A stretch of DNA of 64,000 nt from an uncultured Candidatus Saccharibacteria bacterium. Lineage in GTDB: Bacteria > Patescibacteriota > Minisyncoccia > Phycocordibacterales > PALSA-1337. The translations under genes were made by a program, and so were the position numbers. Below are positions 20,056-63,458 of this stretch, in pieces; the stretch's first letter is position 1; every line of letters begins with the position of its first letter. Under the pieces are notes generated by a model, which saw only the letters and a list, made by a program, of their open reading frames with translations, searched no databases and was not told where the DNA came from. The stretch is taken from assembly GCA_964367745.1 (NCBI GenBank), contig CAYIYK010000003.1:10248-74247 (forward strand), written 5' to 3'.

Positions 20056-20724
20056 ATGAAAATCCTGATTATTGAAGACGATGTAGATATTTCCAGTTTC
20101 ATAAAGGACAATCTTACAGAGAGTACATATTCAGTTGAAGTCGCAAAGGATGGACCTGATGGATCATTTCTGGCCAGAACAAATTATCACGATGTTATCA
20201 TAATGGATTATTCACTTCCTTCAAAAGACGGAGTTTTGGTTTGTGAAGAGATAAGATCATCAGGTGTTGAAACACCCATAATATTCCTAACCGTACATAC
20301 AGACGTCAAAAAGAAGGTTAAAGCATTAGAAAAAGGTGCGGATGACTATATGACTAAACCTTTCTCTATCGAAGAGTTAAAAGCGAGGATACAAGCTCTA
20401 GTGCGTAGACCTAGGAAAATCGAAAGTCCTGTACTGATAGTTGGAGACCTAGTTTTGGATACACACAAAAGAACAGTTAGAAGAGGTGAAACACCTATTT
20501 ATCTAACTAGAAAGACTTATGATCTATTGGAATATCTTATGAGGAATAAAGGTATAGTGCTTTCAAGGGGATCTATAATGGAATATGTATGGAACTCAGA
20601 TAGTGATCCATTCTCAAATACCATAGAAGCACATATCCTAAACCTCAGAAAGAAAATCAATGTTAGAGGTAAAAAGGATATACTAAAGAATATTCCAGGT
20701 AGAGGTTATATTATGGGGTCCTAA
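20056..20724 (+). CDS. OmpR-family response regulator (receiver plus winged-helix). It is an orphan: no histidine kinase gene is adjacent.
   Basis: MKILIIEDDVDISSFIKDNL...DVIIMDYSLPSKDG...GADDYMTKPFSIEELKARIQALVRR...LTRKTYDLLEYLMRNKGIVLSR... Confidence 0.8.
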   Translation: MKILIIEDDVDISSFIKDNLTESTYSVEVAKDGPDGSFLARTNYHDVIIMDYSLPSKDGVLVCEEIRSSGVETPIIFLTVHTDVKKKVKALEKGADDYMTKPFSIEELKARIQALVRRPRKIESPVLIVGDLVLDTHKRTVRRGETPIYLTRKTYDLLEYLMRNKGIVLSRGSIMEYVWNSDSDPFSNTIEAHILNLRKKINVRGKKDILKNIPGRGYIMGS

Positions 20725-28507: not shown

Positions 28508-28537
28508 CCCTCACGTAAAAAGCGTGGGGGTCTTTTT
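28508..28537 (+). terminator. Rho-independent terminator
   Basis: A ccctcacg ... cgtggggg stem (8 bp, one G-U pair) followed by TCTTTTT. Confidence 0.5.
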
Positions 28538-29693
28538 ATTCAACAAAAGTCTTTTGAGTATAAAGAGGTACAGTAGCTATAACCTCTGCAATCTTTTTAC
28601 TTGTACCTTCTGCAAAATATAGACTTGATGATTCGTATCTGCCTTTTTTAACTTGTTTCTCTATTGCTTTCTTTATAGCTTTAATATCATGGTCTACAGT
28701 TACTACATTTTCTGCACTCAATCTTTTGAATTGTCTATTACCAATATTCACCACAGGCAAACCCATAAAAGAAGATTCCTTTATTCCAGCTGATGAATTC
28801 CCTATCAAACATAGACTGTTATTCAATAGCCAAATAAAATCCTTTGGACCCATATATCGCATGAAGCGTATTTTATGTCCTTTAACTTCATCTTTAAAAA
28901 TTCGAAGCTCATGTGATATATCTTCTGCACCGGCATCAGCATTTGGCCAAAACCAAAGTGTTGGAATCTTTAGACTATGTACAGCATCAAGGATTTTCTT
29001 TGTATTTTCATGTACATGCTTCACATCCATAATATCAGGATGATACATAACTATTAGATATCCTTTCTTTAGATCAAAAAGGGCCCCACTTCCTGTTTTC
29101 TTTATATCGAATTTATGTTTATTTTTTGCTAATTTTTGTACAACTTCTATTTCTGGACTACCAAAATTGAAAACGTGAGATTCTCTTTCTCCAAGTCTCA
29201 ATACTCTTTTTCTTGCTGGTTCATTTGTTGTAAAGTGAATATGAGAAAGTTTTGTGATAGCGTGTCTTACACTTTCATCTATTGATCCAGATACATCACC
29301 ACCTTCTATGTGTGCGATAGGTATAGATAAATATGCAGCTGCAATTGTAGCTGATAGAACTTCAAATCTATCACCTCTTACCACAACGACATCAGGTTTA
29401 ATCTGATTAAAAAGTGTAGTGAATTCTATTATTCCTAGTCCTGTTGTTTTTGCTTTTACGATTGTATCATTCCCTTCTAGATTGAAATGTAGTTCGTATA
29501 GCTTGTTATATCCGTCTTCCGTCAAAAGTTTTCTTATATCAGCAAGTTTTGAAGTATAACGAGACAATAAAGCTGTACCTCCAACTATTATATGTAGGTC
29601 AATATCCTTTCTTTTCTTTAGTTCTTCTAGAATAAGAAAGTTACGACTATAGTGTATGAAACTTGTAATAACAAAGCAGACTTTTCTCTTCAT
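28536..29693 (-). CDS. neuC: UDP-N-acetylglucosamine 2-epimerase (NeuC-type, hydrolysing)
   Basis: 385 aa. VVVRGDRFEVLSATIAAAYLSIPIAHIEGGDVSGSIDESVRHAITKLSHIHFTT is the conserved epimerase core, and the GT-B-like two-domain layout is present. Confidence 0.75.
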   Translation of the reverse strand: MKRKVCFVITSFIHYSRNFLILEELKKRKDIDLHIIVGGTALLSRYTSKLADIRKLLTEDGYNKLYELHFNLEGNDTIVKAKTTGLGIIEFTTLFNQIKPDVVVVRGDRFEVLSATIAAAYLSIPIAHIEGGDVSGSIDESVRHAITKLSHIHFTTNEPARKRVLRLGERESHVFNFGSPEIEVVQKLAKNKHKFDIKKTGSGALFDLKKGYLIVMYHPDIMDVKHVHENTKKILDAVHSLKIPTLWFWPNADAGAEDISHELRIFKDEVKGHKIRFMRYMGPKDFIWLLNNSLCLIGNSSAGIKESSFMGLPVVNIGNRQFKRLSAENVVTVDHDIKAIKKAIEKQVKKGRYESSSLYFAEGTSKKIAEVIATVPLYTQKTFVE

Positions 29694-36478: not shown

Positions 36479-37873
36479 TTAAATAATTTTTCCTAAAAAA
36501 TCGACATTTCTCTTATAAGACAAACCGTCTCTAAAGAAAATAAAATCATTGAATACTTTCTCTTGTTGCTTCTTTTTTACATCGTGATTTTTCAAACAAA
36601 TATTAACATGTTCAACGATATTATCGAAACTCTTTGAGAGAAAAACTGCATCAGCATCTACTATAGGTTTATAGTGACGGAAATTGTATGCTCTATGATA
36701 CTTTTCTGGATAATCTATATTTACAACTGGTTTTCCGAAGATAAAAGATTCAAGGGTCATTGTTGAAACGTAGTTTATAACTACATCAGAATATTTTAGA
36801 GTTAATTTTAGATTCAAAATATCATCTTCATGTATTTCAATTCTTGTACCCATTTCTTGTGAAAGTAACTTGCCTGGATATTCAACATGGAGATTTGGAA
36901 TTTTACTATCAATATATACTTTGAACTTATCAAACTCTTCTTTTGGATGCATTCGCACTAGAATATTGGGTTTACCATCGAATTTGCCTTGATCACGAGC
37001 TTTCAATAGTTCACCAAGAAGAATATCTTCATCAGGGTAATTCCCCTTTGTAACTGTAGTTATAAGTATTGTTTTTTCTTTTGGATTCAATCCTTTACTC
37101 AAAAGGAACGCTTCTCTAGACTGTTCACTTGGATTGTTTACAGAATAAGAGTCGAAACGCATTGTACCTGAGACAAATACATTATCTTCTGAATATCCAT
37201 ATTCTTTAACTGCGGTATTTTTTATTATTTTATTCCAAACGATTAGATAATCTGGTCTTCTAAAATGCATTCCTCCATTGTGAAGATTGTCCCAACTGAA
37301 GTTTACTGCAGCAGTCTTTATACCAAACTTCTTAGCATATATTATTGCTTCAGCATCAGGATGACTGAAGCCAGGAGTTGCTGTTAGAAACATAACTGGG
37401 TTGTATTCTTTAATCTTTTCTTCAAGAGCCTTTGATCTTGGTATAAAAATTTTCTCAAGTTTAGTAAATAAATCATTTGTCCAAAAAGATGCAGGGGCAA
37501 TGTAAGAAAAATACTTCAAAAATCTTCTTCTCCAATCCTTCATCCCCTTTTCTTTATTTCTTACAACCACTGGTTCAAAATCGTATTTACGGATTATTGA
37601 ATATCTAAAATATTTACCAAATAGATTCCAAAATCCTGGATTTTGTAATTTCCAAGGAACATAAGTCACATTTTCTGATTTAAAATATGGTTTATTATCT
37701 TCACAAAAAGCTTGTGGGGACATAAATACGACTACTTTGTATTTTGTTGATAAATACTTTATATAATCTGTACGCAAAAAATCTGATGAGTAAACAAAGT
37801 TCGAAATAAAAAGAAATATTGTTTTCATAGAAAGGTATTGTAGCATATATGTTATAATCCTTATTATTACCAC
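36479..37873 (-). CDS. TagF-like / 'HP-motif' GT-B family protein; paralog C. It is the only one of the three that retains the His-Pro motif.
   Basis: 464 aa. IKTAAVNFSWDNLHNGG, IVWNKIIK, LVRMHPKEEF, KPVVNIDYP. Confidence 0.4.
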   Translation of the reverse strand: MVIIRIITYMLQYLSMKTIFLFISNFVYSSDFLRTDYIKYLSTKYKVVVFMSPQAFCEDNKPYFKSENVTYVPWKLQNPGFWNLFGKYFRYSIIRKYDFEPVVVRNKEKGMKDWRRRFLKYFSYIAPASFWTNDLFTKLEKIFIPRSKALEEKIKEYNPVMFLTATPGFSHPDAEAIIYAKKFGIKTAAVNFSWDNLHNGGMHFRRPDYLIVWNKIIKNTAVKEYGYSEDNVFVSGTMRFDSYSVNNPSEQSREAFLLSKGLNPKEKTILITTVTKGNYPDEDILLGELLKARDQGKFDGKPNILVRMHPKEEFDKFKVYIDSKIPNLHVEYPGKLLSQEMGTRIEIHEDDILNLKLTLKYSDVVINYVSTMTLESFIFGKPVVNIDYPEKYHRAYNFRHYKPIVDADAVFLSKSFDNIVEHVNICLKNHDVKKKQQEKVFNDFIFFRDGLSYKRNVDFLGKII

Positions 37874-40389: not shown

Positions 40390-41814
40390 GTGATAACCAT
40401 ATATAATCTTAAAAAATACAATTTTATGAAAAATATATCCAAAAAGGCTTTCATTATCATATTTTTAATAATCGTATCCGTAAATTTCCTTTATGCTATA
40501 TCATATAAAATAAAACCAGCTGTAGATGCTGAAGCATATGATGAAATAGCGACAAATATCGTTGAACACGAACAGTACAGATCGAGCTTTAACGTTCCTC
40601 TAGAACTTGATGGTTCAATATCAAGAATCGGTCCTGGATATGAATTGTTCTTAGCTACAAATTATCTATTCTTTGGAAAACATTTTTGGATTATTTGGTT
40701 ATTCCAAGCAATACTTTATGCTTTGACTATTGTAATGCTTGGCTTGATGAGTCTAAAGTTATTCCCTGTTTTAAATCAAAACACAAAAATCCTTTATGGT
40801 TCGATGATTGTCTTTGGTCTACTTATCGATATTATTCAGTTGAATGCAATGATAATGACCGAATCCCTTTTCCTATTTCTTCTAACTCTTTCTTTCTTTA
40901 TTTGGTCACAAATTTACAATCATGATCCAAAGATAAAATATGGACTGTGGATTATCCTTGGTTTCGTCTTGGGATTGTTAACCCTTACAAGACCAACAGG
41001 TCTTCTAGTTTTTGTTTTATTAAGTGGAGCAACTATATATAGGAAAAAACTTGGTTCAATACTTGCAATATGCCTTATTGCTATTCCTTTTATCTTAATC
41101 CAAGTTCCTTGGTTTGTAAGAAATTATCATGTATATAATCAATTCATTTTTCACTCTAGTGCTGATGGTCTGAATTTCTTAAGTGGCAACTATCCCGGTA
41201 ATCATGGAGAATTTACTTCTGATTTCCCTTTTTATAAAGAATTAAAAGAGAAATACCCATCCCCAGTAGAATTAAATAGTGAAGCAAAGAAGTGGTATAA
41301 AGATTTTGTATTACATCACCCTATTCAAGCTACAAAAATACTAATTGAAAAAGCTTTAATATTCTTTTCACTTACCAAAACTTCTGGCTTTTGGTTCCAT
41401 TATTTTGGAAAGACTGATCAGATACTTACGATCCTCATATCAATATTTCAAAACTTTATAATACTTGGAAGTATTATATTGTATGGAACGATGGTTGTTA
41501 AAAGATGGATAAATAAACAATTCCTTCTACCAGACATATTCCTTGCTTCAACTTTTGTAGTATTAACAGTAACTCCAATAATTTCAGTTATAGCAAATAG
41601 ACATAGACTTCCACTAGTTATAATGTCTCTGCCTTTATTCGTCTATGTTGCATATATAATAAAAAATAACTTTAGAAAAATGAAATGGGAAATCGCTATT
41701 ACGATTCTTATCCTTATCGCAAGTACAGGTTTTGATCTATTCTTACAATTCGATAAATTCAAATCAAAGATACATTCAGTGAATAAAAATCCAGCAGAAA
41801 CAGTAACTAAATAA
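40390..41814 (+). CDS. GT-C fold membrane glycosyltransferase (ArnT/PMT-like). The six-frame ORF starts at a GTG; an ATG at 40426 is an alternative start.
   Basis: 474 aa. An N-terminal TM, then a periplasmic-loop acidic motif (AVDAEAYDE), then many TM helices. It is paired with a second GT-C and a Dpm1-like GT2. Confidence 0.5.
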   Translation: MITIYNLKKYNFMKNISKKAFIIIFLIIVSVNFLYAISYKIKPAVDAEAYDEIATNIVEHEQYRSSFNVPLELDGSISRIGPGYELFLATNYLFFGKHFWIIWLFQAILYALTIVMLGLMSLKLFPVLNQNTKILYGSMIVFGLLIDIIQLNAMIMTESLFLFLLTLSFFIWSQIYNHDPKIKYGLWIILGFVLGLLTLTRPTGLLVFVLLSGATIYRKKLGSILAICLIAIPFILIQVPWFVRNYHVYNQFIFHSSADGLNFLSGNYPGNHGEFTSDFPFYKELKEKYPSPVELNSEAKKWYKDFVLHHPIQATKILIEKALIFFSLTKTSGFWFHYFGKTDQILTILISIFQNFIILGSIILYGTMVVKRWINKQFLLPDIFLASTFVVLTVTPIISVIANRHRLPLVIMSLPLFVYVAYIIKNNFRKMKWEIAITILILIASTGFDLFLQFDKFKSKIHSVNKNPAETVTK

Positions 41815-41817
41815 TTT

Positions 41818-43476
41818 ATGATTAAGAAAATTATAAAACACCCATTAAGTTATATATTACTTTTTGCTTTTTTAATTCGTATAGTAATGATCAAATACGG
41901 TTTGCCATTCTGGCTATACAATGACGAACCACCTTTTGTACTTACAACACTGAAGATGTTCCAACTAAAAACACTGTTACCAGTGTTACATGAAGCTGAT
42001 TTCAAGCCTTTCATGTATTACCCTCCTTATATTAGTTATCTATATATTCCCTTCTTTTTATTTTCTATAGCACTATCATGGATTGGTTTTGATGGAAACC
42101 TTAGTGAGTTACAGAATGTCTTGGCTAGTGATCCTTCTATATTTTTCATAACAGCGAGAGTAATAATGATTTTTATTAGTATATTAACAATTTATTTAAT
42201 ATATAAAATAACTCAATCATTAACTCAAAGTAAGACAGCATCACTTTATTCTGCAATCCTTTCTTCAACAAGTTTAATGTTTATAAGTCTTTCAATCACA
42301 GGCAAACACTGGGTACCAATACTTTTCTTTTATACACTTTGTCTTTTTATACTTACACGTCCGAATTGGTCTATTAAAAAGAGATATATATTGTCAGCAG
42401 TTACTATTGGTATCGGAACTGGTGTAGGTACTGTGGTGATTCTTTTTTCAGTTGTTATTTTCCTTTGGTATATAACGTACGATAAAGTAAGTATGAAAGA
42501 AAGTTTGACTAGCTTACTTATGTACAAACTAGGTTTTATCGTAGTTATTTTATCTTTTATTCCAGTTCTTCTTTATCCTGCAAGTCTTGGTTTCGTACCA
42601 GACACAACATTACATGGAGGTAAAACTCTTTTAGGATTCATAACTAGTCCTTTTGTCTTTCCATTCCCTTTTATCGCCACGGAACCAGTTTTGGTATTAC
42701 TTAGTCTTATTGGTTTATATCTCGGTTTTAAAAAATACAAACCATTCTATATAACATCTATCATTTTTACAGTGTTTTACAGTATGATATTCTATGTATT
42801 TTTCAGATTCGAATACCGTTTCCTTTTACCTCTTGTATTGTTCTTAATAGTTGGATCAGCAATAGGAATAAATGAGATTAGGAATAAATACCCAAACAAA
42901 TATTCTAAAGCATTTATTTATCTAATTCTTCTAATCCCAATATTATTCTCTTTGAGACTTAGTTATCTTGGTTATGTAAATGATTCAAGAATAAAAGCAA
43001 AAGAATGGTTGAATGCCAATACCGAAGCTGATGACAAAGTTATCGTCTATGCAAACCTTATGAGAATAGCGAATAATAAAAATGGAATATTGGAACAAGA
43101 ATTCATCGATTCTAGATCATTGAGGACAAATGATAAAAACATGTTGAATATTCGAGACGGTTTGATAAAAGAGAAGACATTCCACGCTTTAAATCTATAT
43201 ACAGTTGAGAACGACAATTTCTACAAAATGATTGATGTTTATGCAAAAAAGAATGGCTATAAATATCTAATATTTAGTAAAAAAGATTTCTTAGATAAAT
43301 CTGAACAGTTTGAGTATGTTAAAAATCTTACAAAAGATGCTAAACTTATGGCAAGCTATGGTAATAATGAGAGTAACTATTCCCTATCAAAAACAGACAT
43401 TGGACCTAATTTATTACCTTTCTTTAGAATAAATGAATTCGGACCAGAGATAGAGATATATAAATTGAATAACTAA
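41818..43476 (+). CDS. GT-C fold membrane glycosyltransferase (PMT_2 / dolichyl-phosphate-mannose protein-mannosyltransferase-like) with a C-terminal soluble domain
   Basis: 552 aa. MIKYGLPFWLYNDEPPF is the typical first-loop motif of ArnT/PMT-like enzymes. About 11 TM helices are followed by a ~180-aa soluble C-terminal domain. Confidence 0.55.
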   Translation: MIKKIIKHPLSYILLFAFLIRIVMIKYGLPFWLYNDEPPFVLTTLKMFQLKTLLPVLHEADFKPFMYYPPYISYLYIPFFLFSIALSWIGFDGNLSELQNVLASDPSIFFITARVIMIFISILTIYLIYKITQSLTQSKTASLYSAILSSTSLMFISLSITGKHWVPILFFYTLCLFILTRPNWSIKKRYILSAVTIGIGTGVGTVVILFSVVIFLWYITYDKVSMKESLTSLLMYKLGFIVVILSFIPVLLYPASLGFVPDTTLHGGKTLLGFITSPFVFPFPFIATEPVLVLLSLIGLYLGFKKYKPFYITSIIFTVFYSMIFYVFFRFEYRFLLPLVLFLIVGSAIGINEIRNKYPNKYSKAFIYLILLIPILFSLRLSYLGYVNDSRIKAKEWLNANTEADDKVIVYANLMRIANNKNGILEQEFIDSRSLRTNDKNMLNIRDGLIKEKTFHALNLYTVENDNFYKMIDVYAKKNGYKYLIFSKKDFLDKSEQFEYVKNLTKDAKLMASYGNNESNYSLSKTDIGPNLLPFFRINEFGPEIEIYKLNN

Positions 43477-44240
43477 TGAAAATCACGATAATAATACCAA
43501 CATACAATGAGGGTGAAGCAATCGGTAATCTTCTCGATGCGGTTATTGCTGAGACAAAGGAAATAAAGAATCATATATTTTCTATTCTTATCGTTGACGG
43601 GAATTCAAAAGACAATACTCAAGAGAATGTTAGAAACAAATCAAATAAATACAACAATATAAAACTAATTGTTGAAAAAAGTAAATGCGGTCTTGGGAAT
43701 GCGTATCTAGAAGGAATGAATTATGCAATAAACAATCTTGGTGCGGATGCCTTCATGGAATTTGATGGTGATTTCCAGCACAATCCAAAAGATATAAAGA
43801 AGTTGGTAGAAAAACTAGATCAAGGATACGAATATATAATCGGATCAAGATATATAAAAGGAGGAACGATTCCAAAAGAATGGCCTTGGTACAGGAAAGC
43901 TATTAGTTCATTCGGAAATATCGTTATAAGTATAGGATTAAGACTTGGTATAAATGATGCAACTTCAGGATTCAAACTATCAAGAGTTGGTAAATTCAAA
44001 GACTCGATGCCATTAAAACAAGGACAATTGATCTCTCTTCGACATGCATATAAGATCCATTTTCTTTATAATATAGTAAAAGCTGGAGCAAAAACAGTAG
44101 AAGTTCCCATAGAATTCTTGAATCGAAATAAAGGAATATCAAAGAGTACTTTCGAAGATATTATAGAATCATTAAGAGTTGTCTTTGTTTTGATTATCAA
44201 AGGTAGAAACAACAGCATTGTTTTTAAAAATAAATCTTGA
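43476..44240 (+). CDS. GT2 polyprenol-phosphate glycosyltransferase (Dpm1/GtrB/ArnC-like)
   Basis: ITIIIPTYNEGEAIGNLLDAV...LIVDGNSKDNTQENV...GLGNAYLEGMNYA...FMEFDGDFQHNPKDIKKLVEKL (the DxD and QH motifs). Confidence 0.75.
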   Translation: MKITIIIPTYNEGEAIGNLLDAVIAETKEIKNHIFSILIVDGNSKDNTQENVRNKSNKYNNIKLIVEKSKCGLGNAYLEGMNYAINNLGADAFMEFDGDFQHNPKDIKKLVEKLDQGYEYIIGSRYIKGGTIPKEWPWYRKAISSFGNIVISIGLRLGINDATSGFKLSRVGKFKDSMPLKQGQLISLRHAYKIHFLYNIVKAGAKTVEVPIEFLNRNKGISKSTFEDIIESLRVVFVLIIKGRNNSIVFKNKS

Positions 44241-44603
44241 ATAGATAAAGTAACTACTGATAGCAAGTAAACCTGAAGCTAGTATTTGACTTAGGAAATA
44301 GTGAATATGGAAGTGATCTACAAATAAATACATTAAAAGTGTATTCACACCAAGATTTACGCTTGAGACAATAAAATAAATAGTTGTTTGTTTGTGAACA
44401 TCTTCGATACTTTTATCCTGAAATGTCCAGAACTTTTGCAATATAAAACTAACAGAGAATGCTATTAGGAAAGCAAGAATTGCTGAAATCAAATAATTTA
44501 TCTTAAAAATATCAACAAAAATAGCTAGGAAGGCCAAGTTAACAACCGCTGCAGTTCCACCAGATATTATATATTTTATTGTCTTAATTATTTTGGTTCT
44601 CAT
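44172..44603 (-). CDS. GtrA-family small membrane protein (polyprenol-P-sugar flippase-associated)
   Basis: 143 aa with 4 TM helices. YIISGGTAAVVNLAFLAIFVDIFKINYLISAILAFLIAFSVSFILQKFWTF is the GtrA signature. Its 3' end overlaps the convergent GT2 gene by 69 nt. Confidence 0.65.
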   Translation of the reverse strand: MRTKIIKTIKYIISGGTAAVVNLAFLAIFVDIFKINYLISAILAFLIAFSVSFILQKFWTFQDKSIEDVHKQTTIYFIVSSVNLGVNTLLMYLFVDHFHIHYFLSQILASGLLAISSYFIYSRFIFKNNAVVSTFDNQNKDNS

Positions 44604-53948: not shown

Positions 53949-55823
53949 TTACTTTACCTTAAGTACATCACGAAGTACATCTTCAGGAACCTCTCTTTTT
54001 GTGTCACTTTTTTCGTGATGATTAGCATGACTTTTATGTATTTCATTTGGTTTATGGTCACTTGAAGTATTTTGATGATTCGAATGATTTGAACCATCTG
54101 AATCTTTTTTTACATGCTCGTCCTTATGTGCCAAAACTGATGCCAAAGCACTCTTTAATTCATTTATTCTTTGTGGATGTGCATCTTTATGATGATTATG
54201 AGCCTTAGGTGTATTTGTTAGAGAATTCAGAGATACAGACTTTAACTTAGGAAGATTTGGTTGGGGTTTTGGATAATTTGATTGTTGCACATGATTTTGG
54301 ACACTTGGCTGTACAGGTGCTTGGACTGATTGTTGAGGTGGTTGCTGAATAGGCTGTTCTGCGACAATTGGCTTTGGTGGAGGTGGAGGTATATGTGCAG
54401 GTGCAGGTGTGGGTGCAACTGTAGCTACTGGTTTGGGCGGTTGTGTATTTGTTGCAGGAGTACTAGAACCATTCTGAGTAGAATTCGAAGCGGTAGATGC
54501 ACCGGGCGTAGGATTCTTTGGAGTTACAACAGGCTTTATTGGTGCAAGCCATTCTTCGATTTTCTTTTCTACTTCTGGTCTCTTACTAGCAAACTGTCTT
54601 CTTGATTCTTCAATCACAGCAAGAGCATTGGACTTCTCTGGTAAAGGAATGGGTGGCAATGTTGTAGCAGAAAATGGTGATGAACTTATACCATCAATCA
54701 TCAGTTTCAAATATATTTGAAATATTCCGAGATTAACAATATCTTCAGCGGTGAACTGTGGTGCGAATTCTTTTTCCAAAACTTCTGCATCATAAGCGCC
54801 AACACGGAACACGATCATTGTTCCAACGTTTCCAAAAACCGCAGCTCTAACCTCTTCTTCCATTTGCTCTATATACTGGTGAGCCATAGTAAGATTCAGT
54901 TTATATTTTCGAGCTTCAGAGAGAATATCTGCAAAAGATTCATTTGCAAATGATTGGAATTCGTCTACGAATAGATAGAAGTTTGGAAGTTTTTTTATAA
55001 CATTATCTGACACATCAGCACGAGAAAGTGCAGCGAGATATATCTTGGTTATTATCATTCCACCCAAAAGATTTGCATTCGATTCTCCGATTCTTCCTTT
55101 TGATAAGTTAACTATAAATATCTTACTCTTATCCATCATTTCACGGAGATTGAAAGATGATTTTGGTTGACCGATCATATTTCGTATCAGAGCATTCGCA
55201 GTGAACTGACCGATTTTATTTTGTATTGCAGGAACAGCTTCGGCAGCCATTCTTTCTGTATAGTTTGCAAATTCTTGTACCCAGAATGATTTTACTGATG
55301 GATCAGTAACACAGGCCACTACTTGCTTCCTGAATTCTTTATCAGAAAGCATTCTATTTACCCCAAGCAGGGTTGCGTCAGGATATTCAAGTAAAGCCAA
55401 AAGAGTATTTGTAAGAATATACTCCATTCTCGCTGACCAAGCATCTTGCCAGATCTTTTTGAATGTACTCATAAGACCAGATACAACTAGATGTCTTTTG
55501 TCATGATCAACGTTTTCAAGTACGTTGAATGATATAGGATAGTCCATATCAAAAGGTGCAAAATACACAACGTCTTGTCTTCTATTCTCAGGAATATATT
55601 CTAGTAGCAATTCCGCTGTCTTACCGTGAGGGTCGAGGAAGGCCATACCTTCCCCATTTTTTATATCTTGCACAGCCATGTTTTCAAGTAGAGTAGATTT
55701 ACCCATACCTGTCTTACCGATCACATAAACGTGCTTTGTTCTATCTTTGGCTTTAATACCAAAACTTACCTTTTTATTTCTGGCATCAGTTTGACCAAAA
55801 TATGTAATCTTTTCTTCATTCAT
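53949..55823 (-). CDS. Soluble P-loop ATPase of the VirD4/TraD (type IV coupling protein)/HerA-like superfamily, with a long C-terminal Pro/Gln-rich then His-rich disordered tail
   Basis: 624 aa. Walker A: HVYVIGKTGMGKSTLLENM. Walker B: NFYLFVDEFQSF. There is no N-terminal TM anchor. The C-terminal ~200 aa read PKPVATVAPTPAPAHIPPPPPKPIVAEQPIQQPPQQSVQAPVQPSVQ... and then HNHHKDAHPQ...HSNHQNTSSDHKPNEIHKSHANHHEKSD. Confidence 0.5.
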   Translation of the reverse strand: MNEEKITYFGQTDARNKKVSFGIKAKDRTKHVYVIGKTGMGKSTLLENMAVQDIKNGEGMAFLDPHGKTAELLLEYIPENRRQDVVYFAPFDMDYPISFNVLENVDHDKRHLVVSGLMSTFKKIWQDAWSARMEYILTNTLLALLEYPDATLLGVNRMLSDKEFRKQVVACVTDPSVKSFWVQEFANYTERMAAEAVPAIQNKIGQFTANALIRNMIGQPKSSFNLREMMDKSKIFIVNLSKGRIGESNANLLGGMIITKIYLAALSRADVSDNVIKKLPNFYLFVDEFQSFANESFADILSEARKYKLNLTMAHQYIEQMEEEVRAAVFGNVGTMIVFRVGAYDAEVLEKEFAPQFTAEDIVNLGIFQIYLKLMIDGISSSPFSATTLPPIPLPEKSNALAVIEESRRQFASKRPEVEKKIEEWLAPIKPVVTPKNPTPGASTASNSTQNGSSTPATNTQPPKPVATVAPTPAPAHIPPPPPKPIVAEQPIQQPPQQSVQAPVQPSVQNHVQQSNYPKPQPNLPKLKSVSLNSLTNTPKAHNHHKDAHPQRINELKSALASVLAHKDEHVKKDSDGSNHSNHQNTSSDHKPNEIHKSHANHHEKSDTKREVPEDVLRDVLKVK

Positions 55824-55875: not shown

Positions 55876-57441
55876 TTAATTATGACTGTATATTGTATAT
55901 AAATTATCACTATATACCCTCTTCAAATTTGAGTATTTTAATAAATCATTTCTATTATCCTGTATTACATATTGAATATCGTATTTTTCTAGATTTTTTA
56001 ATATCCTTTCTTGTGTGTTTGAACTCATAACATCATGAATTCTCTCTGGCTTTGATATCCACTGCCCCGCATATAATGTCCAAAAAACATAATTTCTTGA
56101 ATAAAGCGGTATATATTGTGAAAGAGATTCCGGTGCCATAAATATTGAATCTTTAGAATTCGACTTTATCCAATTAAGTATGGGGACATATCTTTGAACA
56201 TAAATAGTATAATCTAAAGAGTTTTTATATGAATTAATTTGAATCAAAATAGAATTAAAAATACAAAGAATAGACAGCAGGTATATTATTGCAATACAAA
56301 TTTTTGATTTTATATTGTCAGACAGAAATTCCTTTATAAAATAGACTATTGAGATAACCAAGACTGGACTGAATACATACATTTCGAAATGACCATATTG
56401 CATTATAAGTCCAGTTATAACATGTTCATTTCTAGTTAGAAAACAAGCAGATATTAGGCCTGAAATAAATATAAATTCATCATTAATAATTTTATTCTTC
56501 TTATAAACCAAAAAGAGCAGCGTAGAACAGACTATAAAAATTGATATTCCAAACAAACTAACATCAGGAATATGACTCATTCTTAAATATTCATGTGGGA
56601 TGGTTAAATAGTACTCATGAGACATTAGATTCACAATCTGATAAAAGACTGGAATAGCCAATATTATACCTACTGATAAACTGACAACAAGACCCTTAAG
56701 TCTGTCAAATTCTTTTCTAAAAAAATAAATCCCAATAAAAACTAGATTTAACACAGTTAAATATGCATATGTAAAGAAATAAACATAGAATGACAAACCA
56801 AAGAAAATACCGAGGATGATATACCACAGTCTAGTATTCTTTTTAATTGCTAAATACAAAATATTTAAATATAAGAAAAAATACAAAGAACTGAATTGAG
56901 GATTAACAGGTCTAGAGAATATAAGGAATTGATCCTCATCAGTTACAAACCTAAACAGATTCAATAAATCATGAATATTTAACAGATCAACGAAATTCAA
57001 GAGATTATACCCAAGCACAATAAACAGTGACCCGAGTATAGATATGTGAATATTCCTAGTAATTCTATCGAGCAGCAAAAAAGACAGAAGGAAGATAATG
57101 ATCGGCAACACAAGTTCGTACAAAATCTTTAAATCCAGCGTATCTATACTTAATATGATACCTGGCAGTGCCAATATCATAGACGAAATAGATGAATCAA
57201 AGTGTGGGAAATTATAGCCATACTCTTTTATAAAAGGATTACAATTAAACGTACAACCCATGTATGCTCCTTGAATTTTATTCAGATATAGTGACTCTGC
57301 ATCGGTATTCATTATTGGTATACCACTAAAGTTAGTACTGTGAATAAATAAAATATTTGGCAATACATAAATAACACCGCAAACTAGAGAGATGATAAGG
57401 ATCGATAGAAATTTCTTAGAAAACATAAATAAATTATACAT
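55876..57441 (-). CDS. Large polytopic membrane protein immediately downstream of pilA. It is a candidate pilin glycosylation/assembly factor, in the position of tfpO/pilO O-oligosaccharyltransferases. The likely ATG is at 57441; the six-frame ORF starts at a TTG at 57444.
   Basis: About 520 aa with at least 12 predicted TM helices and several larger loops. It is on the same strand as pilA, 51 nt downstream. No soluble enzymatic motif was recognised by eye. Confidence 0.35.
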   Translation of the reverse strand: MYNLFMFSKKFLSILIISLVCGVIYVLPNILFIHSTNFSGIPIMNTDAESLYLNKIQGAYMGCTFNCNPFIKEYGYNFPHFDSSISSMILALPGIILSIDTLDLKILYELVLPIIIFLLSFLLLDRITRNIHISILGSLFIVLGYNLLNFVDLLNIHDLLNLFRFVTDEDQFLIFSRPVNPQFSSLYFFLYLNILYLAIKKNTRLWYIILGIFFGLSFYVYFFTYAYLTVLNLVFIGIYFFRKEFDRLKGLVVSLSVGIILAIPVFYQIVNLMSHEYYLTIPHEYLRMSHIPDVSLFGISIFIVCSTLLFLVYKKNKIINDEFIFISGLISACFLTRNEHVITGLIMQYGHFEMYVFSPVLVISIVYFIKEFLSDNIKSKICIAIIYLLSILCIFNSILIQINSYKNSLDYTIYVQRYVPILNWIKSNSKDSIFMAPESLSQYIPLYSRNYVFWTLYAGQWISKPERIHDVMSSNTQERILKNLEKYDIQYVIQDNRNDLLKYSNLKRVYSDNLYTIYSHN

Positions 57442-57471
57442 CAAAAAACACCCTATGGGTGTTTTTTGATG
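57439..57471 (-). terminator. Perfect 15-bp inverted repeat with a 3-nt loop between pilA and the downstream gene. On the minus-strand transcript it is a hairpin followed by a U-rich tract whose 3' arm contains the downstream gene's AUG.
   Basis: catcaaaaaacaccc-tat-gggtgttttttgatg on the plus strand, about 25 nt after the pilA stop codon. The minus-strand RNA reads 5'-caucaaaaaacaccc-aua-ggguguuuuuugAUG-uauaauuuauuuauguuuuc. Confidence 0.55.
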
Positions 57472-57495
57472 TAACCGTATTGTTACCAGATTGTA

Positions 57496-57975
57496 TTAAG
57501 ACGCAGGGCAAGCTGTAGCATTTATTGCAAGAACAGTTGTAACTTGTCTTGAAGCGCCTGTATTATCTACACACCATCCAACTGGTGTACCACTCACTGA
57601 AGCCTTCAGCGGAGCCCAGATAACCCATGTTGCTGATGCATCGTGACATTGTGCAGTGTTCCAAGTTGAAGCAGTTCCATCAGCAAATACCGCAGCTGTT
57701 CCTCCGAAAGCGGCTTGAGCAGCCATTACACTGTCTCCAATAACATTAGCACCTGTTAACGCACATACGGCATCATAAACATTAGTTCCATTATCATAGA
57801 ACAATTCTGCCTCAGCTCTAGCACCTGCTAGGTTTGACTTTATAGCTGTATCAGCTCCCTTTGAACGTGCTGTGTTTAGTGAAGCCAAAACAACTGATGA
57901 CAATATACCGATAATAGCGATAACTACAAGCAACTCAATCAATGTAAAACCTTTTTGCAAATATGATTTCTTCAT
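57496..57975 (-). CDS. pilA: Type IV (class III signal peptide) major pilin
   Basis: MKKSYLQKGFTLIELLVVIAIIGILSSVVLASL is the prepilin leader (a G-F cleavage site, with Glu at +5). The C-terminal disulfide loop is CVDNTGASRQVTTVLAINATAC, followed by PAS-stop. The protein is Ala/Gly/Thr-rich. pilC, pilT and pilB lie upstream. Confidence 0.85.
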   Translation of the reverse strand: MKKSYLQKGFTLIELLVVIAIIGILSSVVLASLNTARSKGADTAIKSNLAGARAEAELFYDNGTNVYDAVCALTGANVIGDSVMAAQAAFGGTAAVFADGTASTWNTAQCHDASATWVIWAPLKASVSGTPVGWCVDNTGASRQVTTVLAINATACPAS

Positions 57976-58085: not shown

Positions 58086-59294
58086 TTATTGAGCACTTGC
58101 AACGTTGTATATAGGTATAAGAACTGAAGCAAGCAGTGTAGCAACACCAAGTCCCAAAAGGACGATCATAGCGGGTTCAATAAGATCGACTAGTGCATCT
58201 ACAGCAGTTACTACTTCTCTAGAGTAAAATCTCGACAAAGTCTTCAATATTGCACCGAGTTCTCCTGATTCTTCTCCCACTCTCATCATTTGAATCATAA
58301 TTCCGGGGATTTCACCGTTACCTGAAAGTGCTTCTGATACCGTCTTTCCTGCTTTTACTGAATCTACAGCATCAGAAAGTATTTTTTTATAAATACTATT
58401 GTTTATAACAGATGAAGTTAGTTCTAGTGAACGAATCATTGGAATTCCTGACATAAGCATAGTATTCATATTGTCAGAAAGTCTTGCCCAATATAGTTTC
58501 CTAAAAAGATTACTCATATAAGGGATACTAAGTTTGAATTGATCAAAAACGATTGTGCCACTTGGAGTTCTTATATATCTAATTAAAATAAATCCAAGCA
58601 CCACAACGATCGCAACAACAATAAAGCCTTTTTCTACCAAGAAATTACTTATACCCAGAACAACTTTTGTATATATTGGAATATCTTGTCCAGACTCAGT
58701 CAAAATTGTACTGATCTTTGGAATAACCATAGTGAACATAAGTATCATCACGGTTATAAATGTCATCATAACGAAAGCTGGATATATAAGAGCACTCTTG
58801 GCTTTTGAAACAAGTTCATATGTTCTATCTAGATAGTCAGCAAGGTAAGCAAAAGTCTCATTTAGTTTACCTGACTCTTCTCCTGCTTTTACCATACTTA
58901 CATAAAATTCTGAGAATACCTTTGGATGTTTCTCTAGAGCGCTTGATATCTGACTTCCCGCTTGTAGATCATCGGCGATCTGGATTAGCTTTGTACCCAA
59001 AACTTTATTATCACATTCAGCGCCTAAGAGTCTAAAGATTCTCAGAGCCGAAACCTGTGCTTCAAAAAGTGTTGCTAGTTGTCTTGAAAGTATAACTATC
59101 TCTTTATTTGACACTCTATCAAGAAAAGATAGGTTCATTGAAAGAAGTCCTCCCTTTTTATCTGCTTCATTTATAGAAGTAATAACCAGGCCTCTTCTTT
59201 GCAAAGAAGCAATAGCAATATCGACATTCGCAGCATCTATAGAGCCTTTTTGTTGTGTTCCCGCTTGATCTACTGATTGATAATTAAATAACAT
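58086..59294 (-). CDS. pilC: Type IV pilus inner-membrane platform protein (GspF/PilC family)
   Basis: 402 aa. It has two T2SS_F repeats (LATLFEAQVSALRIFRLL...; LSRFYSREVVTAVDALVDLIEPAMIVLLGLGVATLLASVLIPIY) and 3 TM segments. Confidence 0.9.
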   Translation of the reverse strand: MLFNYQSVDQAGTQQKGSIDAANVDIAIASLQRRGLVITSINEADKKGGLLSMNLSFLDRVSNKEIVILSRQLATLFEAQVSALRIFRLLGAECDNKVLGTKLIQIADDLQAGSQISSALEKHPKVFSEFYVSMVKAGEESGKLNETFAYLADYLDRTYELVSKAKSALIYPAFVMMTFITVMILMFTMVIPKISTILTESGQDIPIYTKVVLGISNFLVEKGFIVVAIVVVLGFILIRYIRTPSGTIVFDQFKLSIPYMSNLFRKLYWARLSDNMNTMLMSGIPMIRSLELTSSVINNSIYKKILSDAVDSVKAGKTVSEALSGNGEIPGIMIQMMRVGEESGELGAILKTLSRFYSREVVTAVDALVDLIEPAMIVLLGLGVATLLASVLIPIYNVASAQ

Positions 59295-59302
59295 ATAAAA
59301 TA

Positions 59303-60361
59303 TTATATCATTCTCTCAAGATTTTTTGGATTCGCAGAATTTATATAAGCATTTTCAGGACTAATCTCACCTCTTCTTACAAGTTCTGCCAAAGAACGAT
59401 TCATATCGATCATACCTTCTGCAGAACTAGTCTCTATAACAGTATTTATTTCATGTATTCTTTTTTCTCGGATTAGGTTTGCAACCGCAGAATTGTTTAT
59501 CAGAAGTTCATATGCTGGTATAAGTCCTCCTGAAATTCTAGGAATCAATCTTTGAGAGAAAATACCTGTCATACTTCCTGCAAGTTGAACTCTAATTTGA
59601 TCTTGTTGAGAGGCTGGAAAAGAGTCGATGATACGGTTTATAGTCTGAGAAGCAGTATTTGTGTGTAGTGTTGAGAATACCAAGTGACCTGTTTCAGCAG
59701 CAGTAACCGCTGTAGATATAGTCTCTGGATCTCGCATCTCGCCCACCAAAGCAACGTCTATATCTTCTCGAAACATTGCGATCAAAGCATTCTTAAAGTC
59801 TGGAGTATCTATTCTGACCTCTCTTTGATCTATAATAGATTTCTTTGATTCATAAATATATTCAATAGGATCCTCTATCGTCATAATGTGCTCATTTCTA
59901 GTTTGATTTATTATTTCAATTAAAGAAGCCAAGGTTGTACTTTTTCCTTGTCCGATCGGTCCTACGCAAAGGAAGAATCCTTGTTGTTTTCTAGTAAAAG
60001 ATTCAAGAATTGGTGGAAGATTCAACTCTGTAAGAGTCTTTATTTGTTTTGGAATAAGTCTAAGGGCAATAGAGATGAGGCTTTGTCTATAATACGCATT
60101 TCCTCGGAATCTTGCATTGGTCAAACTATAAGAAAAGTCTACGTCTTTGTCTTTATCAAAAAGTTCTTTATTTTCATCAGAAAGAAAAGTATTTATATAA
60201 CCTTTCATATCTGCAGCGGTGATTATAGGTTTTTTTGCAAGAGGTATAAGGCTTCCAGATACTCGAATAAGTGGGTGTCTACCTTCAGAAAGATGAAGGT
60301 CTGATGCACCCTCGTTTATCACGGTTGTAACAAGTTCTTCTATATCCCTTTTATAATCCAT
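59303..60361 (-). CDS. pilT: Type IV pilus retraction ATPase
   Basis: 352 aa. GFFLCVGPIGQGKSTTLASLIEIIN (Walker A), HIMTIEDPIEYIY, VALVGEMRD, and the His box FSTLHTN. Confidence 0.9.
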   Translation of the reverse strand: MDYKRDIEELVTTVINEGASDLHLSEGRHPLIRVSGSLIPLAKKPIITAADMKGYINTFLSDENKELFDKDKDVDFSYSLTNARFRGNAYYRQSLISIALRLIPKQIKTLTELNLPPILESFTRKQQGFFLCVGPIGQGKSTTLASLIEIINQTRNEHIMTIEDPIEYIYESKKSIIDQREVRIDTPDFKNALIAMFREDIDVALVGEMRDPETISTAVTAAETGHLVFSTLHTNTASQTINRIIDSFPASQQDQIRVQLAGSMTGIFSQRLIPRISGGLIPAYELLINNSAVANLIREKRIHEINTVIETSSAEGMIDMNRSLAELVRRGEISPENAYINSANPKNLERMI

Positions 60362-60381: not shown

Positions 60382-60768
60382 CTATTTTTTAATATTTGAA
60401 CAAATCTTCTCAACTTCAGACATAACTTCAGAAGGAATTGTGGTTGCTTTTATTATATAACCATCAACATTCAAAGCTTTTGCTCTAGCAATATCATCAG
60501 GAAGACCTTGATTTGTTAGCATGATTATAACTGATTTCTTTACCAAACCTTCTTTTCTTAGATTTGAAAGTAATTCGATACCATCCATTCCTGGCATAAC
60601 AATATCTAAAAGTAGAATATCAGGTTCCAATCCATCTCTTATTAACTTCAACGCTTCTTCTGTATCTGCTGATGTGTGGACGATAAAATCATTCTTTGAA
60701 AACTTCAGAGAATACATATCGAGTAGAAACTTGTCATCATCTACAAAAAGTATTGAGCGTTGTTTCAT
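60382..60768 (-). CDS. Single-domain response-regulator receiver (CheY/PilH-like)
   Basis: 128 aa. ILFVDDD...DILLLDIVMPGMDGIELL...VIIMLTNQG...GYIIKA. Confidence 0.7.
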   Translation of the reverse strand: MKQRSILFVDDDKFLLDMYSLKFSKNDFIVHTSADTEEALKLIRDGLEPDILLLDIVMPGMDGIELLSNLRKEGLVKKSVIIMLTNQGLPDDIARAKALNVDGYIIKATTIPSEVMSEVEKICSNIKK

Positions 60769-60791: not shown

Positions 60792-62507
60792 TTAAAGCTT
60801 ATTCACTTCTTCAAACGGTATTTTCTTTTCAAATGCTTTTAGCATTGCATCTTCTTTCATCGTAATCATCCCCTTTTGTCTCAACAATCTACTTATCTCC
60901 AATTCAGTCGGGCTTTTCAAAATAACATTTTCTATCTCTTTATCCATTTTAAATATTTCAAATATTGCCATACGTCCTCTAGTACCCTTTGGACAATCTG
61001 GAGTCGGCTCTATTCCATAAACTGTATCTGAAAAAGGTATTTCTTTTTTATATTGTTCTGGAAGATCTGAGAATTGCTTATCGATCATCATTTTTATACT
61101 TCCTTCAACCGGTATTGGTTTACCAGCACCTGGAGGGAAAGTTGAAACAAGTCTTTGGGCAATAGCTAGGATAAGAGTCGGAGCAATAAGGTATGGATCT
61201 ACTCCCATGTCTATCAGACGAGGAATAACACCAGCAGAGTTGTTAGTGTGTAGTGTTGAGAATACCAAGTGACCAGTAAGCGCTGCTTGCACAGCAAGCT
61301 GCGCAGTCTCTTTGTCTCGGATCTCTCCCACCATGATTATATCCGGGTCTTGTCTAAGAGTTGTTCTAAGTCCTGATGCAAAAGTATAACCAATTTCAGG
61401 GTGTACTTGTGATTGACTCACGCCGTCCATATTGTATTCAATAGGATCTTCGAGAGAAAGAACGTTCATACTCTCTCTATCAACTTCGTTTAGCATAGAA
61501 TAAAGTGTTGTAGATTTTCCTGAACCTGTCGGACCTGTGATTAGAATAAGTCCATAAGGTCTTGTAATTGCATCTTTTATATAAGCGAGGTTTTTCGGGG
61601 TTAGACTCATATCGTCTATCTTTTTTACTCCCTTTTCCTGATCGAGGATACGCATCACAACCTTCTCACCATAATATGCCGGGAAAGTTGAAACTCGGAA
61701 GTCGATTTTTCTTCCATCAATACGCGCAGAGAATCTACCGTCTTGAGGTTTTCTCTTTTCATCAAGCTTCATATTACATAAAACTTTAATACGAGCCACA
61801 ACAGCATTGTGCACTTGTGGAGGCAGAACTAGACTGGTATTTAGAGTACCGTCCACACGGAATCGGACACGAACCTTATCTCTCATATGTTCGATATGAA
61901 CGTCGGAAGCATTACCTTCTGTAGCGTATCGAACTATAGTAGCTACGATCTTTATAACTGGAGCATCTTCTATAATAACTGCATCACTTTTCTTTTCAGA
62001 CTTATTTTGTGCCAAATCTAGAGTTGCAGCTTTGTCTACAGATAGTACAGATTCAAGTTCAGTAAGAGCCTTTGATACTTCTCCACCAATTCCTTTGTAT
62101 GATTCAATTACTTTTTGGAAATCATCTATAGTGATAAGAAAAACTTTGTATGGAATATTTTTCTTTGAGGCAATGAAGTTTAGAGCATCTCTAGCTTCGA
62201 TATTGTCTGGGTCTACAATTCCAACCTCGAGTGTACTGTCATGAATTCCAACTGGTACGAATTTATAATGTTTCGCTGATTCTTCTGGAATATAATCCAA
62301 TGCTTCAAAAGGAACCATAGTATCCCCTAGGGCTTTTACAGGAATATTCAGGAACTCTCCTCTTGCAGTGAGAATATCTTCAGGTCTTATACCCTTTTCA
62401 ATTAAAATTTGATCCAAAGCCTCACCCTTTGCAGCGAGTTTTTTTATTTCTGCAACATCATCTTTGGTTATAAGATTTTTATTTAATAAAATATCAACAA
62501 TACTCAT
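60792..62507 (-). CDS. pilB: Type IV pilus assembly/extension ATPase (GspE/PilB family) with an N-terminal T2SSE_N domain
   Basis: 571 aa. GLILITGPTGSGKSTTLYSML, LSLEDPIEY, VGEIRDKETAQLAVQAALTGHLVFSTLHTN, and a tetracysteine-like region (CPKGTRGR...). Confidence 0.9.
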   Translation of the reverse strand: MSIVDILLNKNLITKDDVAEIKKLAAKGEALDQILIEKGIRPEDILTARGEFLNIPVKALGDTMVPFEALDYIPEESAKHYKFVPVGIHDSTLEVGIVDPDNIEARDALNFIASKKNIPYKVFLITIDDFQKVIESYKGIGGEVSKALTELESVLSVDKAATLDLAQNKSEKKSDAVIIEDAPVIKIVATIVRYATEGNASDVHIEHMRDKVRVRFRVDGTLNTSLVLPPQVHNAVVARIKVLCNMKLDEKRKPQDGRFSARIDGRKIDFRVSTFPAYYGEKVVMRILDQEKGVKKIDDMSLTPKNLAYIKDAITRPYGLILITGPTGSGKSTTLYSMLNEVDRESMNVLSLEDPIEYNMDGVSQSQVHPEIGYTFASGLRTTLRQDPDIIMVGEIRDKETAQLAVQAALTGHLVFSTLHTNNSAGVIPRLIDMGVDPYLIAPTLILAIAQRLVSTFPPGAGKPIPVEGSIKMMIDKQFSDLPEQYKKEIPFSDTVYGIEPTPDCPKGTRGRMAIFEIFKMDKEIENVILKSPTELEISRLLRQKGMITMKEDAMLKAFEKKIPFEEVNKL

Positions 62508-62882: not shown

Positions 62883-63458
62883 TTATTGTTTTAACCAAAA
62901 TGTTTTAACTTCAACACTGTAATCATACACCCCAGTTTCATTTGATTTAATTGTAATTTTTGAAATCTCAATAATTCTTAGACTTGCTTCGATATCTTTT
63001 AGAAAATTTAAGAAATTCTGATAGTTACTAGAAACATCGAAGTTCAAAGTAACAGTACTGTAACTACCTTGTTTTGGTGCTGAAACCCCCATACCTTGCC
63101 CCATAGCTGTATCAACTACTGGTTCAGAAGCGTCTTTTGGTGTGGTGGTCTTCACATTCTTCATTACAATACCGTGCCTTGCAGCGACACCACTTACATC
63201 AATTATAAGTCTTACATTGTCTACATTGTCTGGCAAAATCTTCTCCAGTCTTTCTTGATCATCCTGACTTATCTTATTGTAATTATCCCTAACAGTGTCT
63301 CTTACCTTTACCAGTTTCTCTGAATTCTTAAGAGCTTGTTCATATTGTGCATTTACCTGTCTAATAGCCTGCAATTCATCGATTTTTGCACGAGTAAAAG
63401 TAAAATAAATTCCGACTGACAAAACTATGAGGATGAGAGGTGTGAGGTTTTTGTTCAT
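62883..63458 (-). CDS. pilO: PilO-like type IV pilus alignment-subcomplex protein
   Basis: 191 aa. N-terminal TM, then a coiled coil (ELQAIRQVNAQYEQALKNSEKLVKVRD), then a C-terminal ferredoxin-like domain. Its position is right after pilN-like. Confidence 0.5.
   Translation of the reverse strand: MNKNLTPLILIVLSVGIYFTFTRAKIDELQAIRQVNAQYEQALKNSEKLVKVRDTVRDNYNKISQDDQERLEKILPDNVDNVRLIIDVSGVAARHGIVMKNVKTTTPKDASEPVVDTAMGQGMGVSAPKQGSYSTVTLNFDVSSNYQNFLNFLKDIEASLRIIEISKITIKSNETGVYDYSVEVKTFWLKQ

Follow-up and report, generated by a model that had tools for sequence, protein, structure and literature searches.

Type IV pili are central to the attachment of bacteria of the candidate phyla radiation (CPR, Patescibacteria) to host cells and to their life on these hosts, and pilin glycans in other organisms alter phage susceptibility, antigenicity and the surface chemistry of the pilus. 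Within the CPR/Patescibacteria, pilin glycosylation has so far been guessed from sequence predictors only. A study of the TM7x pilus identified no pilin-modifying enzyme and called glycosylation in Saccharibacteria unexplored (PMC11623550). Among the described systems, TfpW, the D-arabinofuranosyltransferase of Pseudomonas aeruginosa group IV (Pa5196/PA7), is the closest functional analogue of the enzyme reported here: a GT-C protein encoded 3' of pilA, which needs a GtrA-like protein for reconstitution in E. coli (bioRxiv 10.1101/2020.04.19.049825). Three-component extracytoplasmic glycosylation comprises a GT2 enzyme as the source of a polyprenyl-phosphate-sugar, GtrA as its flippase and a GT-C enzyme as the transferase (PMC11127046). 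The GT-C enzyme AftA combines an 11-transmembrane (TM) core with a catalytic Asp on the first long two-helix loop, a phosphate-bound Arg and an alpha/beta C-terminal domain (PMC10265970). Here, we analysed a 64-kb stretch of DNA ("the window", 64,000 nucleotides of contig CAYIYK010000003.1 from an uncultured Candidatus Saccharibacteria bacterium), which is AT-rich (~30-36% G+C) and whose final 8 kb are filled by a type IV pilus operon on the minus strand. At the end of this operon, directly after the major pilin gene, lies the gene of a polytopic membrane protein, and a preliminary description had proposed the two as a candidate pilin O-glycosylation pair of the TfpO/PilO type.

Judged from the fold, the outward-facing motifs and the linkage conserved within its clade, the pair indeed looks like a unit of a pilin and a glycosyltransferase that modifies it, but it is not of the TfpO/PilO type. 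TfpW proves that a GT-C enzyme can glycosylate pilin; the functional idea can therefore be kept, with another enzyme class and with a donor type that is probably different. The best explanation, for which we see the case as evenly balanced, is that the membrane protein acts as an accessory pilin O-glycosyltransferase fed by a GT2 and a GtrA-type protein encoded 12 kb away. The analysis shows how the enzyme is folded and oriented in the membrane, which of its motifs are conserved, that its gene stays linked to that of the pilin and that GT2 genes are associated with it; from these results we infer the donor type, the pilin as acceptor and the O-linkage. The features concerned are:

57496-57975, minus strand: major type IV prepilin, 159 amino acids (aa), from N_methyl, TIGR02532, the cysteine map and an AlphaFold (AF2) model
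57437-57473, minus strand: intrinsic-terminator-like hairpin, from a hairpin scan and the folding energy
55876-57444, minus strand: predicted GT-C-fold membrane glycosyltransferase, 522 aa, from fold, topology and conserved motifs
43476-44240, plus strand: GT2 protein, 254 aa, candidate polyprenyl-phosphate-sugar synthase (PF00535)
44172-44603, minus strand: GtrA-family small membrane protein, candidate flippase (PF04138, E 3.8e-25)

As described before, the large membrane protein is encoded on the same strand as the pilin and 3' of it. The gap between the pilin stop and the start of the GT-C gene measures 51 nt. Its length of 522 aa refers to a TTG start; ATG 57441 or ATG 57426 is the more likely start codon. 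The protein has no match in Pfam or NCBIfam at E <= 1, and a profile of its family found only noise among PDB sequences (E > 1). In contrast to these sequence searches, the AF2 model, which was built on 25 homologues and reaches a pLDDT of 90.6 and a pTM of 0.90, assigns the protein clearly: in Foldseek against the PDB, all 24 matches at E <= 1e-3 are GT-C enzymes (AftA, DPY19, STT3, AglB, PglB, ALG12, ArnT). The helix pattern of the model gives ~11 TM helices in an N-in/C-out arrangement plus an extracytoplasmic alpha/beta C-terminal domain of ~95 aa (about 430-522), where the preliminary description had counted at least 12 helices. Lys and Arg account for five of the 19 residues in predicted cytoplasmic loops versus five of 147 in outside loops. 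The protein thus presents the features that mark membership in the GT-C class, namely the multi-TM core fold, an acidic residue in the first long loop and the alpha/beta C-terminal domain, and by its predicted structure it is very probably a GT-C glycosyltransferase.

All conserved residues of the family are located at predicted outside loops or at outer helix ends. R178, P182, G345, H352, P360 and Q402 are invariant in the 25-sequence alignment; R178 and P182 belong to loop 2, and G345 and H352 to a later outside loop together with N339, while Y406 is conserved as well as Q402. Loop 1 carries the acidic motif D48-A-E50, in which D48 and E50 are each present in 24 of 25 sequences, followed by a basic residue at position 56 (23/25). 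It contains two helices, at 50-61, just after the motif, and at 87-98. Near D48-A-E50, a C64-x3-C68 pair is found in the pilin-linked clade only (17 of the 25 sequences). Together with the topology, the placement of the acidic motif and of the Arg residue agrees with the GT-C core reported for AftA.

The genomic neighbourhood speaks for the pilin as acceptor. With the narrower alignment A2, a locus scan recovered only 5 loci from genomes and 12 from metagenomes. All relatives that reach 41% identity and have flanking DNA are accompanied by an adjoining prepilin gene, and by this gene order the pairing of pilin and enzyme is not due to chance. The prepilin gene lies immediately 5' of the enzyme gene in the window and in L008, L013, L001/L010, L002/L009, L015, L016, L025 and L026; in L014, where the 5' side of the locus is cut off, it lies on the 3' side. 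With P0020 (34% identity), which is placed within a pilin/PilD cluster, 12 of 12 loci of the clade with at least 34% identity are pilin-linked, and none of the 11 loci of more distant homologues has a pilin near the enzyme gene. The pilin-linked sequences also form a single clade in a neighbour-joining tree. Three loci (L001, L002 and that of P0020) have the enzyme gene embedded in a group made up of the major pilin, additional pilin genes and PilD, and glycan genes are absent from the vicinity.

Between the window and L025, identity amounts to 82% for PilC and 91% for the VirD4-like protein encoded 3' of the enzyme, versus 48% for the pilin, almost wholly in its N-terminal helix, and 41% for the GT-C protein. 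According to these values, pilin head and enzyme diverge together between conserved flanks. Two pilins with 69% (P0182) and 64% (P0189) identity to the window pilin sit in operons of the same type without the enzyme, and because of these enzyme-free operons the gene can be regarded as an accessory cassette of the pilus operon.

The window protein 57496-57975 is the only ORF in the window with a prepilin motif, and it is the canonical prepilin that had been claimed. It starts with MKKSYLQKGFTLIELLVVIAIIG, carries a class III signal with cleavage after G9 and matches Pfam N_methyl PF07963 (E 2.3e-9) as well as TIGR02532 (E 1.1e-9). Its cysteines at 71, 110, 135 and 156 form the disulfide pairs C71/C110 and C135/C156, and the C-terminus reads C135-x20-C156-P-A-S-stop; the ending in CPAS is as described earlier, whereas the last loop had been given as C-x22-C and the other pair is an addition to that description. 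The AF2 model of the pilin (built with database homologues; pLDDT 88.5) shows a 53-residue helix (12-64), a loop with a short helix, four beta-strands and a C-terminal coil. Since Foldseek against the PDB gave nothing significant for this model (best pilin matches with TM ~0.5 at E > 4), the assignment as a pilin is based on the N_methyl motif together with the arrangement of secondary structure.

The C-terminal Ser had been proposed as the acceptor, which the related loci do not bear out. Past the last Cys, the nine enzyme-linked pilins end in PAS (three), P (two), PAN, GS, G or no tail at all, so that a terminal Ser is present in four and missing from five. In the 120 closest pilin clusters, P is the most common tail (83), followed by PAS (13), N (9) and D (4), besides rarer variants. 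Because five of the nine linked pilins lack a terminal Ser and the P0182 pilin ends in CPAS without having the enzyme, tail and enzyme appear uncoupled in both directions. The P-A-S tail was rejected as an acceptor mark on the same grounds, and the modified residue is probably not specifically the C-terminal Ser. Conserved Ser/Thr columns are T64 at the end of alpha1, T74, T139, S142 and T146.

Pilin and enzyme genes are parted by the hairpin at 57437-57473, which has a 17-bp stem, a 3-nt loop, a T-rich tail and a folding energy of -24 kcal/mol. An equivalent hairpin occupies the same position in eight of nine related loci (besides the window in L001, L008, L013, L015, L016, L025 and L026), with unrelated sequences and the structure kept. 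This recurrence suggests that the pilin gene is highly expressed and that read-through into the gene of the enzyme is attenuated. Besides, the 3' arm of the hairpin overlaps the TTG/ATG start candidates of the GT-C gene, and start codons inside a hairpin arm hint at attenuation or translational control.

An exhaustive profile search places the enzyme in a very large GT-C family that has no model in the current domain databases, with 3,422 representative clusters (defined at 50% identity) at E <= 1e-3 and 1,122 at E <= 1e-30. All named records are metagenome-assembled genomes of Patescibacteria/CPR, apart from one labelled Gammaproteobacteria. More remote members, at 24-31% identity, are found in glycan clusters next to GT2, GtrA, PMT_2 and YfhO genes, surroundings that are typical of three-component extracytoplasmic glycosylation. 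Several family members carry N-terminal fusions to GT2 (P0036, P0098, P0101), to GtrA (P0057, P0111, P0112, P0133, P0172) or to GT4 (P0099); among ten fusion-type members scanned, only P0057 shows a weak, sub-threshold PMT_2 match (E 0.0033). Because members are fused to GT2 or GtrA, a polyprenyl-phosphate-sugar donor is implied, and a lipid-phosphate-monosaccharide is in our estimation the likely donor of the GT-C enzyme. Natural fusions of this kind can serve to define the donor chemistry of the family and to build a domain model for it.

In the window, such a donor could come from the GT2 protein at 43476-44240, whose best NCBIfam matches are PpgS, PgfS, AglJ and ArnC-type synthases, all under cutoff, and whose gene adjoins that of the GtrA protein at 44172-44603. 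In L025 and L026, a convergent gene for a GT2 of 241-243 aa adjoins the pilin-linked GT-C gene itself, and these proteins are orthologues of the window GT2 with 68% and 57% identity to it. Immediately 5' of the window GT2 gene, a second GT-C candidate of 552 aa (41818-43476, plus strand) has a sub-threshold PMT_2 match (E 8.6e-5), and it may share one lipid-linked sugar donor with the pilin-linked enzyme. Since comparisons of the family by hhalign with three large un- or weakly assigned window proteins (41818-43476, 40390-41814 and 36479-37873) revealed no relationship, the enzyme has no paralogue in the window.

Taken as a pathway, the cytoplasmic GT2 (43476-44240) would load a monosaccharide onto polyprenyl phosphate, and the GtrA-type protein (44172-44603) would flip this product across the membrane to its outer face. 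There, the acidic D48-x-E50 in the first outside loop of the GT-C enzyme would act as catalytic base, with R178 and H352 holding the lipid phosphate. The sugar would then be moved to Ser/Thr hydroxyls in the globular domain of the major pilin while it is still anchored in the membrane, prior to polymerisation. A further-reaching formulation, in which the unnamed GT-C family contains one clade that is a dedicated, fast-evolving pilin glycosyltransferase, carried as an accessory cassette after the major pilin and fed by GT2/GtrA, falls a little short of even confidence.

The role of the enzyme has to be weighed against a reading in which it is a GT-C glycosyltransferase with an acceptor other than the major pilin, be it an envelope glycopolymer, a lipid, an S-layer or other secreted protein, or minor pilins, and in which its position after the pilin reflects co-regulation or a cluster boundary. 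We regard this as unlikely, though it deserves serious attention, and several observations that weigh against an O-glycosyltransferase acting on the major pilin belong here. Most of the GT-C family is not pilin-linked but resides in glycan-biosynthesis clusters without pilins, which makes a glycan or another surface molecule the probable ancestral acceptor. In four loci (the window, L008, L025 and L026), the pilus operon borders on a region rich in glycosyltransferases, and the gene is placed where the two meet, followed by the VirD4-like ATPase and GT4 genes; this border position could account for part of the pilin linkage. The presumed partner GT2 in the window directly follows the PMT_2-like gene 41818-43476, shares an operon with this different GT-C and may supply the latter rather than the pilin-linked enzyme. 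A search for a Ser/Thr position that only the enzyme-linked pilins have was negative, and no pilin residue correlates with the presence of the enzyme; columns such as those of T74, T101, S103 and T139 show the same conservation across the wider pilin family, which includes pilins from operons without the enzyme, and for this reason no pilin site can be nominated. In addition, a terminator-like hairpin separates the two genes, the candidate catalytic residues were assigned by conservation and topology rather than by residue-level superposition, and pilin glycosylation in this bacterium is itself something we infer rather than see directly. On the other side, the pilin gene is the one neighbour conserved across the clade, pilin genes and PilD flank the enzyme gene in L001, L002 and the P0020 locus, where no glycan genes are near, and the pilin-linked sequences are monophyletic with their own C64/C68 pair in loop 1. 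The major pilin stays the best-supported acceptor, at a level of confidence that is neither above nor below even.

A TfpO/PilO enzyme with a Wzy_C domain would transfer an undecaprenyl-pyrophosphate-linked (Und-PP) oligosaccharide en bloc onto the C-terminal Ser past the disulfide loop, and the gene position immediately 3' of the pilin, the C-P-A-S end of the window pilin and a Wzx-like flippase plus nonulosonic-acid genes in the window, which could supply such glycans, all fit this picture. However, no match to Wzy_C, PglL_A, PMT_2 or another relevant family was obtained for the 25 aligned relatives even at E <= 10, and the protein itself is likewise without Wzy_C or PglL_A, although the same Pfam library scores 60.9 bits for Wzy_C in a true Wzy_C+TPR protein elsewhere in the window (20711-22957). 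The fold is that of GT-C, and no WaaL/O-antigen-ligase-like chain is among the matches listed in both fold searches. With the domain and fold tests both negative, the TfpO/PglL assignment fails: profile and fold searches give an ArnT-type GT-C protein without a Wzy_C loop, and by the criterion that the preliminary description itself had set, the original family assignment is refuted. As five of nine linked pilins lack the terminal Ser, a CPAS pilin exists without the enzyme and most of the closest pilin clusters (83 of 120) end in C-P, we consider this explanation scarcely tenable. STT3 and PglB rank among the top Foldseek matches and the window pilin contains two N-x-S/T sequons (N62-G-T64 and N152-A-T154), which would suit a divergent STT3/AglB/PglB-like oligosaccharyltransferase acting on pilin Asn residues. 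Yet neither WWDxG nor even WWD occurs in any of the 25 family members, the sequon positions are not kept among enzyme-linked pilins, and the GtrA/GT2 fusions point to monosaccharide-phosphate-lipid donors instead of oligosaccharides transferred en bloc. N-linkage is unlikely on the grounds of motif and sequons, for which this reading was rejected, and we rate such an oligosaccharyltransferase as very improbable. Pilin accessory proteins devoid of an enzymatic role reportedly exist in the TfpY/TfpZ class of Pseudomonas, and the conserved position inside pilus operons would also be compatible with a catalytically inactive GT-C-like membrane protein that acts as pilin chaperone or assembly factor. 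This is equally improbable, since pilin-linked members have kept the acidic motif of loop 1 and the Arg/His residues no less strictly than members in glycan clusters, which speaks for an enzyme that is still catalytically active.

The other genes of the pilus operon precede the pilin gene, the order from 5' to 3' being PilO-like, PilB, receiver, PilT-like, PilC, prepilin and, at the end, the GT-C protein:

62883-63458, minus strand: PilO-like protein (PilO profile match)
60792-62507, minus strand: PilB (MshEN and T2SSE match)
60382-60768, minus strand: response-regulator receiver protein (Response_reg match)
59303-60361, minus strand: PilT-like ATPase (T2SSE match)
58086-59294, minus strand: PilC (T2SSF match)

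This gene order is repeated in L001, L002, L025 and L031. In L001, L002 and L031, two to five more pilins and PilD follow the major pilin. Minor pilins and a prepilin peptidase were not found in the 64-kb window; since its single prepilin ORF is not accompanied by PilD, minor pilin and PilD genes must lie elsewhere in this genome. Directly 3' of the GT-C gene, 53949-55823 (minus strand) encodes a VirD4/TraD/TrwB-like P-loop ATPase, which is soluble, without an N-terminal TM segment, and has a long Pro/Gln/His-rich tail and weak CedD/CedB matches. This protein is 99.5%, 91% and 90% identical between the window and L008, L025 and L026, respectively, versus 82%, 41% and 42% for the adjoining GT-C protein. 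A link to DNA uptake is one possibility for a VirD4-like ATPase beside a pilus operon. At L029 251-1111 and L030 1-1115, just upstream of a related pilus operon without the GT-C gene, an RVT_1 reverse transcriptase and a bAvd accessory gene were detected, which together are hallmarks of a diversity-generating retroelement.

Apart from the pilus operon, the window is rich in glycan genes. The Wzy_C protein 20711-22957 (minus strand, 748 aa, PF04932, 35 kb from the pilin) has C-terminal TPR repeats; it is of the enzyme class that the preliminary description had expected next to the pilin, and it could be O-antigen-ligase-like or a PglL-like general O-oligosaccharyltransferase; a 36%-identical homologue occurs beside a distant GT-C family member in L027. 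A NeuB-type nonulosonic acid synthase fused to a CMP-sugar cytidylyltransferase (PseI/PseF-like; 24432-26312, minus strand) and a nearby UDP-GlcNAc 2-epimerase (28536-29693, minus strand) belong to a sialic/pseudaminic-acid-type pathway, placed within a 25-kb glycan island (28-53 kb). The island also includes the Wzx-like flippase, a GT9, many GT4 proteins, methyltransferases and two glycerophosphotransferases.

Based on our data, the GT-C enzyme is the best candidate so far for the sugar decoration of pili in these Patescibacteria. If the proposed function is true, CPR bacteria would have their first enzyme with an assigned role in pilus glycosylation, and the GT-C fold would, after Pseudomonas TfpW, have been recruited a second time and independently for the decoration of type IV pili. 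Natural operons with and without the enzyme, together with a candidate enzyme and donor pathway, make pilin glycosylation directly testable. A variable pilin combined with a glycosyltransferase cassette could contribute to host or phage specificity in these episymbionts.

In comparison with TfpW, both enzymes are polytopic GT-C proteins encoded directly 3' of the major pilin gene, with ~11 TM helices, a cytoplasmic N-terminus and an extracytoplasmic C-terminal domain. Both have an acidic loop-1 motif, which is essential in TfpW, and both are accessory genes tied to particular pilin alleles. TfpW uses a polyprenyl-phosphate-sugar donor, the type that we propose here as well. In contrast, TfpW has 646 aa and a C-terminal TPR domain, whereas the window enzyme has 522 aa and the ~95-aa alpha/beta domain, and no TPR match was found in Pfam for it or its 25 relatives. 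The loop-1 motif is DDX in TfpW and D-A-E here, and the TfpW/Emb proline motif Yx6PFx7P is missing, as neither this motif nor Yx6Px5P occurs in any of the 25 members. Arabinose genes of the DPPR synthase, DprE1, DprE2 or UbiA type were not seen among the genes scanned at 16-64 kb of the window, and the hosts differ, a proteobacterium in one case and a monoderm-like CPR bacterium in the other. Set apart by the described features of TfpW (TPR, DDX and proline motif), the enzyme is not a demonstrable member of the TfpW family. With the TfpO/PilO-PglL type it shares the gene position, as tfpO directly follows pilA, and the group I pilins of TfpO have their terminal Ser just past the disulfide loop, as does the window pilin. 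TfpO and PglL differ by a Wzy_C domain in place of a GT-C fold without it and by an Und-PP-oligosaccharide in place of the likely monosaccharide-phosphate-lipid, and unlike in the TfpO acceptor scheme, the terminal Ser is not conserved with the enzyme.

The closest solved structures, mycobacterial AftA (GT85) and archaeal AglB, share the 11-TM core and the alpha/beta C-terminal domain at only 9-12% sequence identity. The two extra N-terminal TM helices of AftA and the WWDxG motif of AglB are missing from the window enzyme, and the acceptors, galactan for AftA and an Asn sequon for AglB, differ from the one proposed here. Enzymes of the PMT family, such as actinobacterial Pmt with Ppm1, are GT-C proteins for which polyprenyl-phosphate-mannose is the donor of a single sugar and Ser/Thr of exported proteins the acceptor. 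They resemble the window enzyme in the GT-C class and in an acidic motif, D-E in PMT, in loop 1; they differ from it since the window enzyme has no PMT or PMT_2 match in Pfam and no MIR domains, and hhalign shows no similarity of its family to the PMT_2-like 41818-43476. The GtrA/GtrB/Gtr*, CsbB/YfhO and ArnC/ArnEF/ArnT systems have the same parts list of a GT2 synthase, a small flippase and a GT-C enzyme, and the GT2 or GtrA fusions in the family of the window enzyme echo this three-component logic. Whereas these systems modify O-antigen, teichoic acids and lipid A, the conserved neighbour of the window enzyme is a pilin gene, and the GT2, GtrA and GT-C genes in the window are not contiguous. 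By analogy, the proposed mechanism resembles bacterial protein O-mannosylation of the PMT type and the Gtr/YfhO/ArnT systems.

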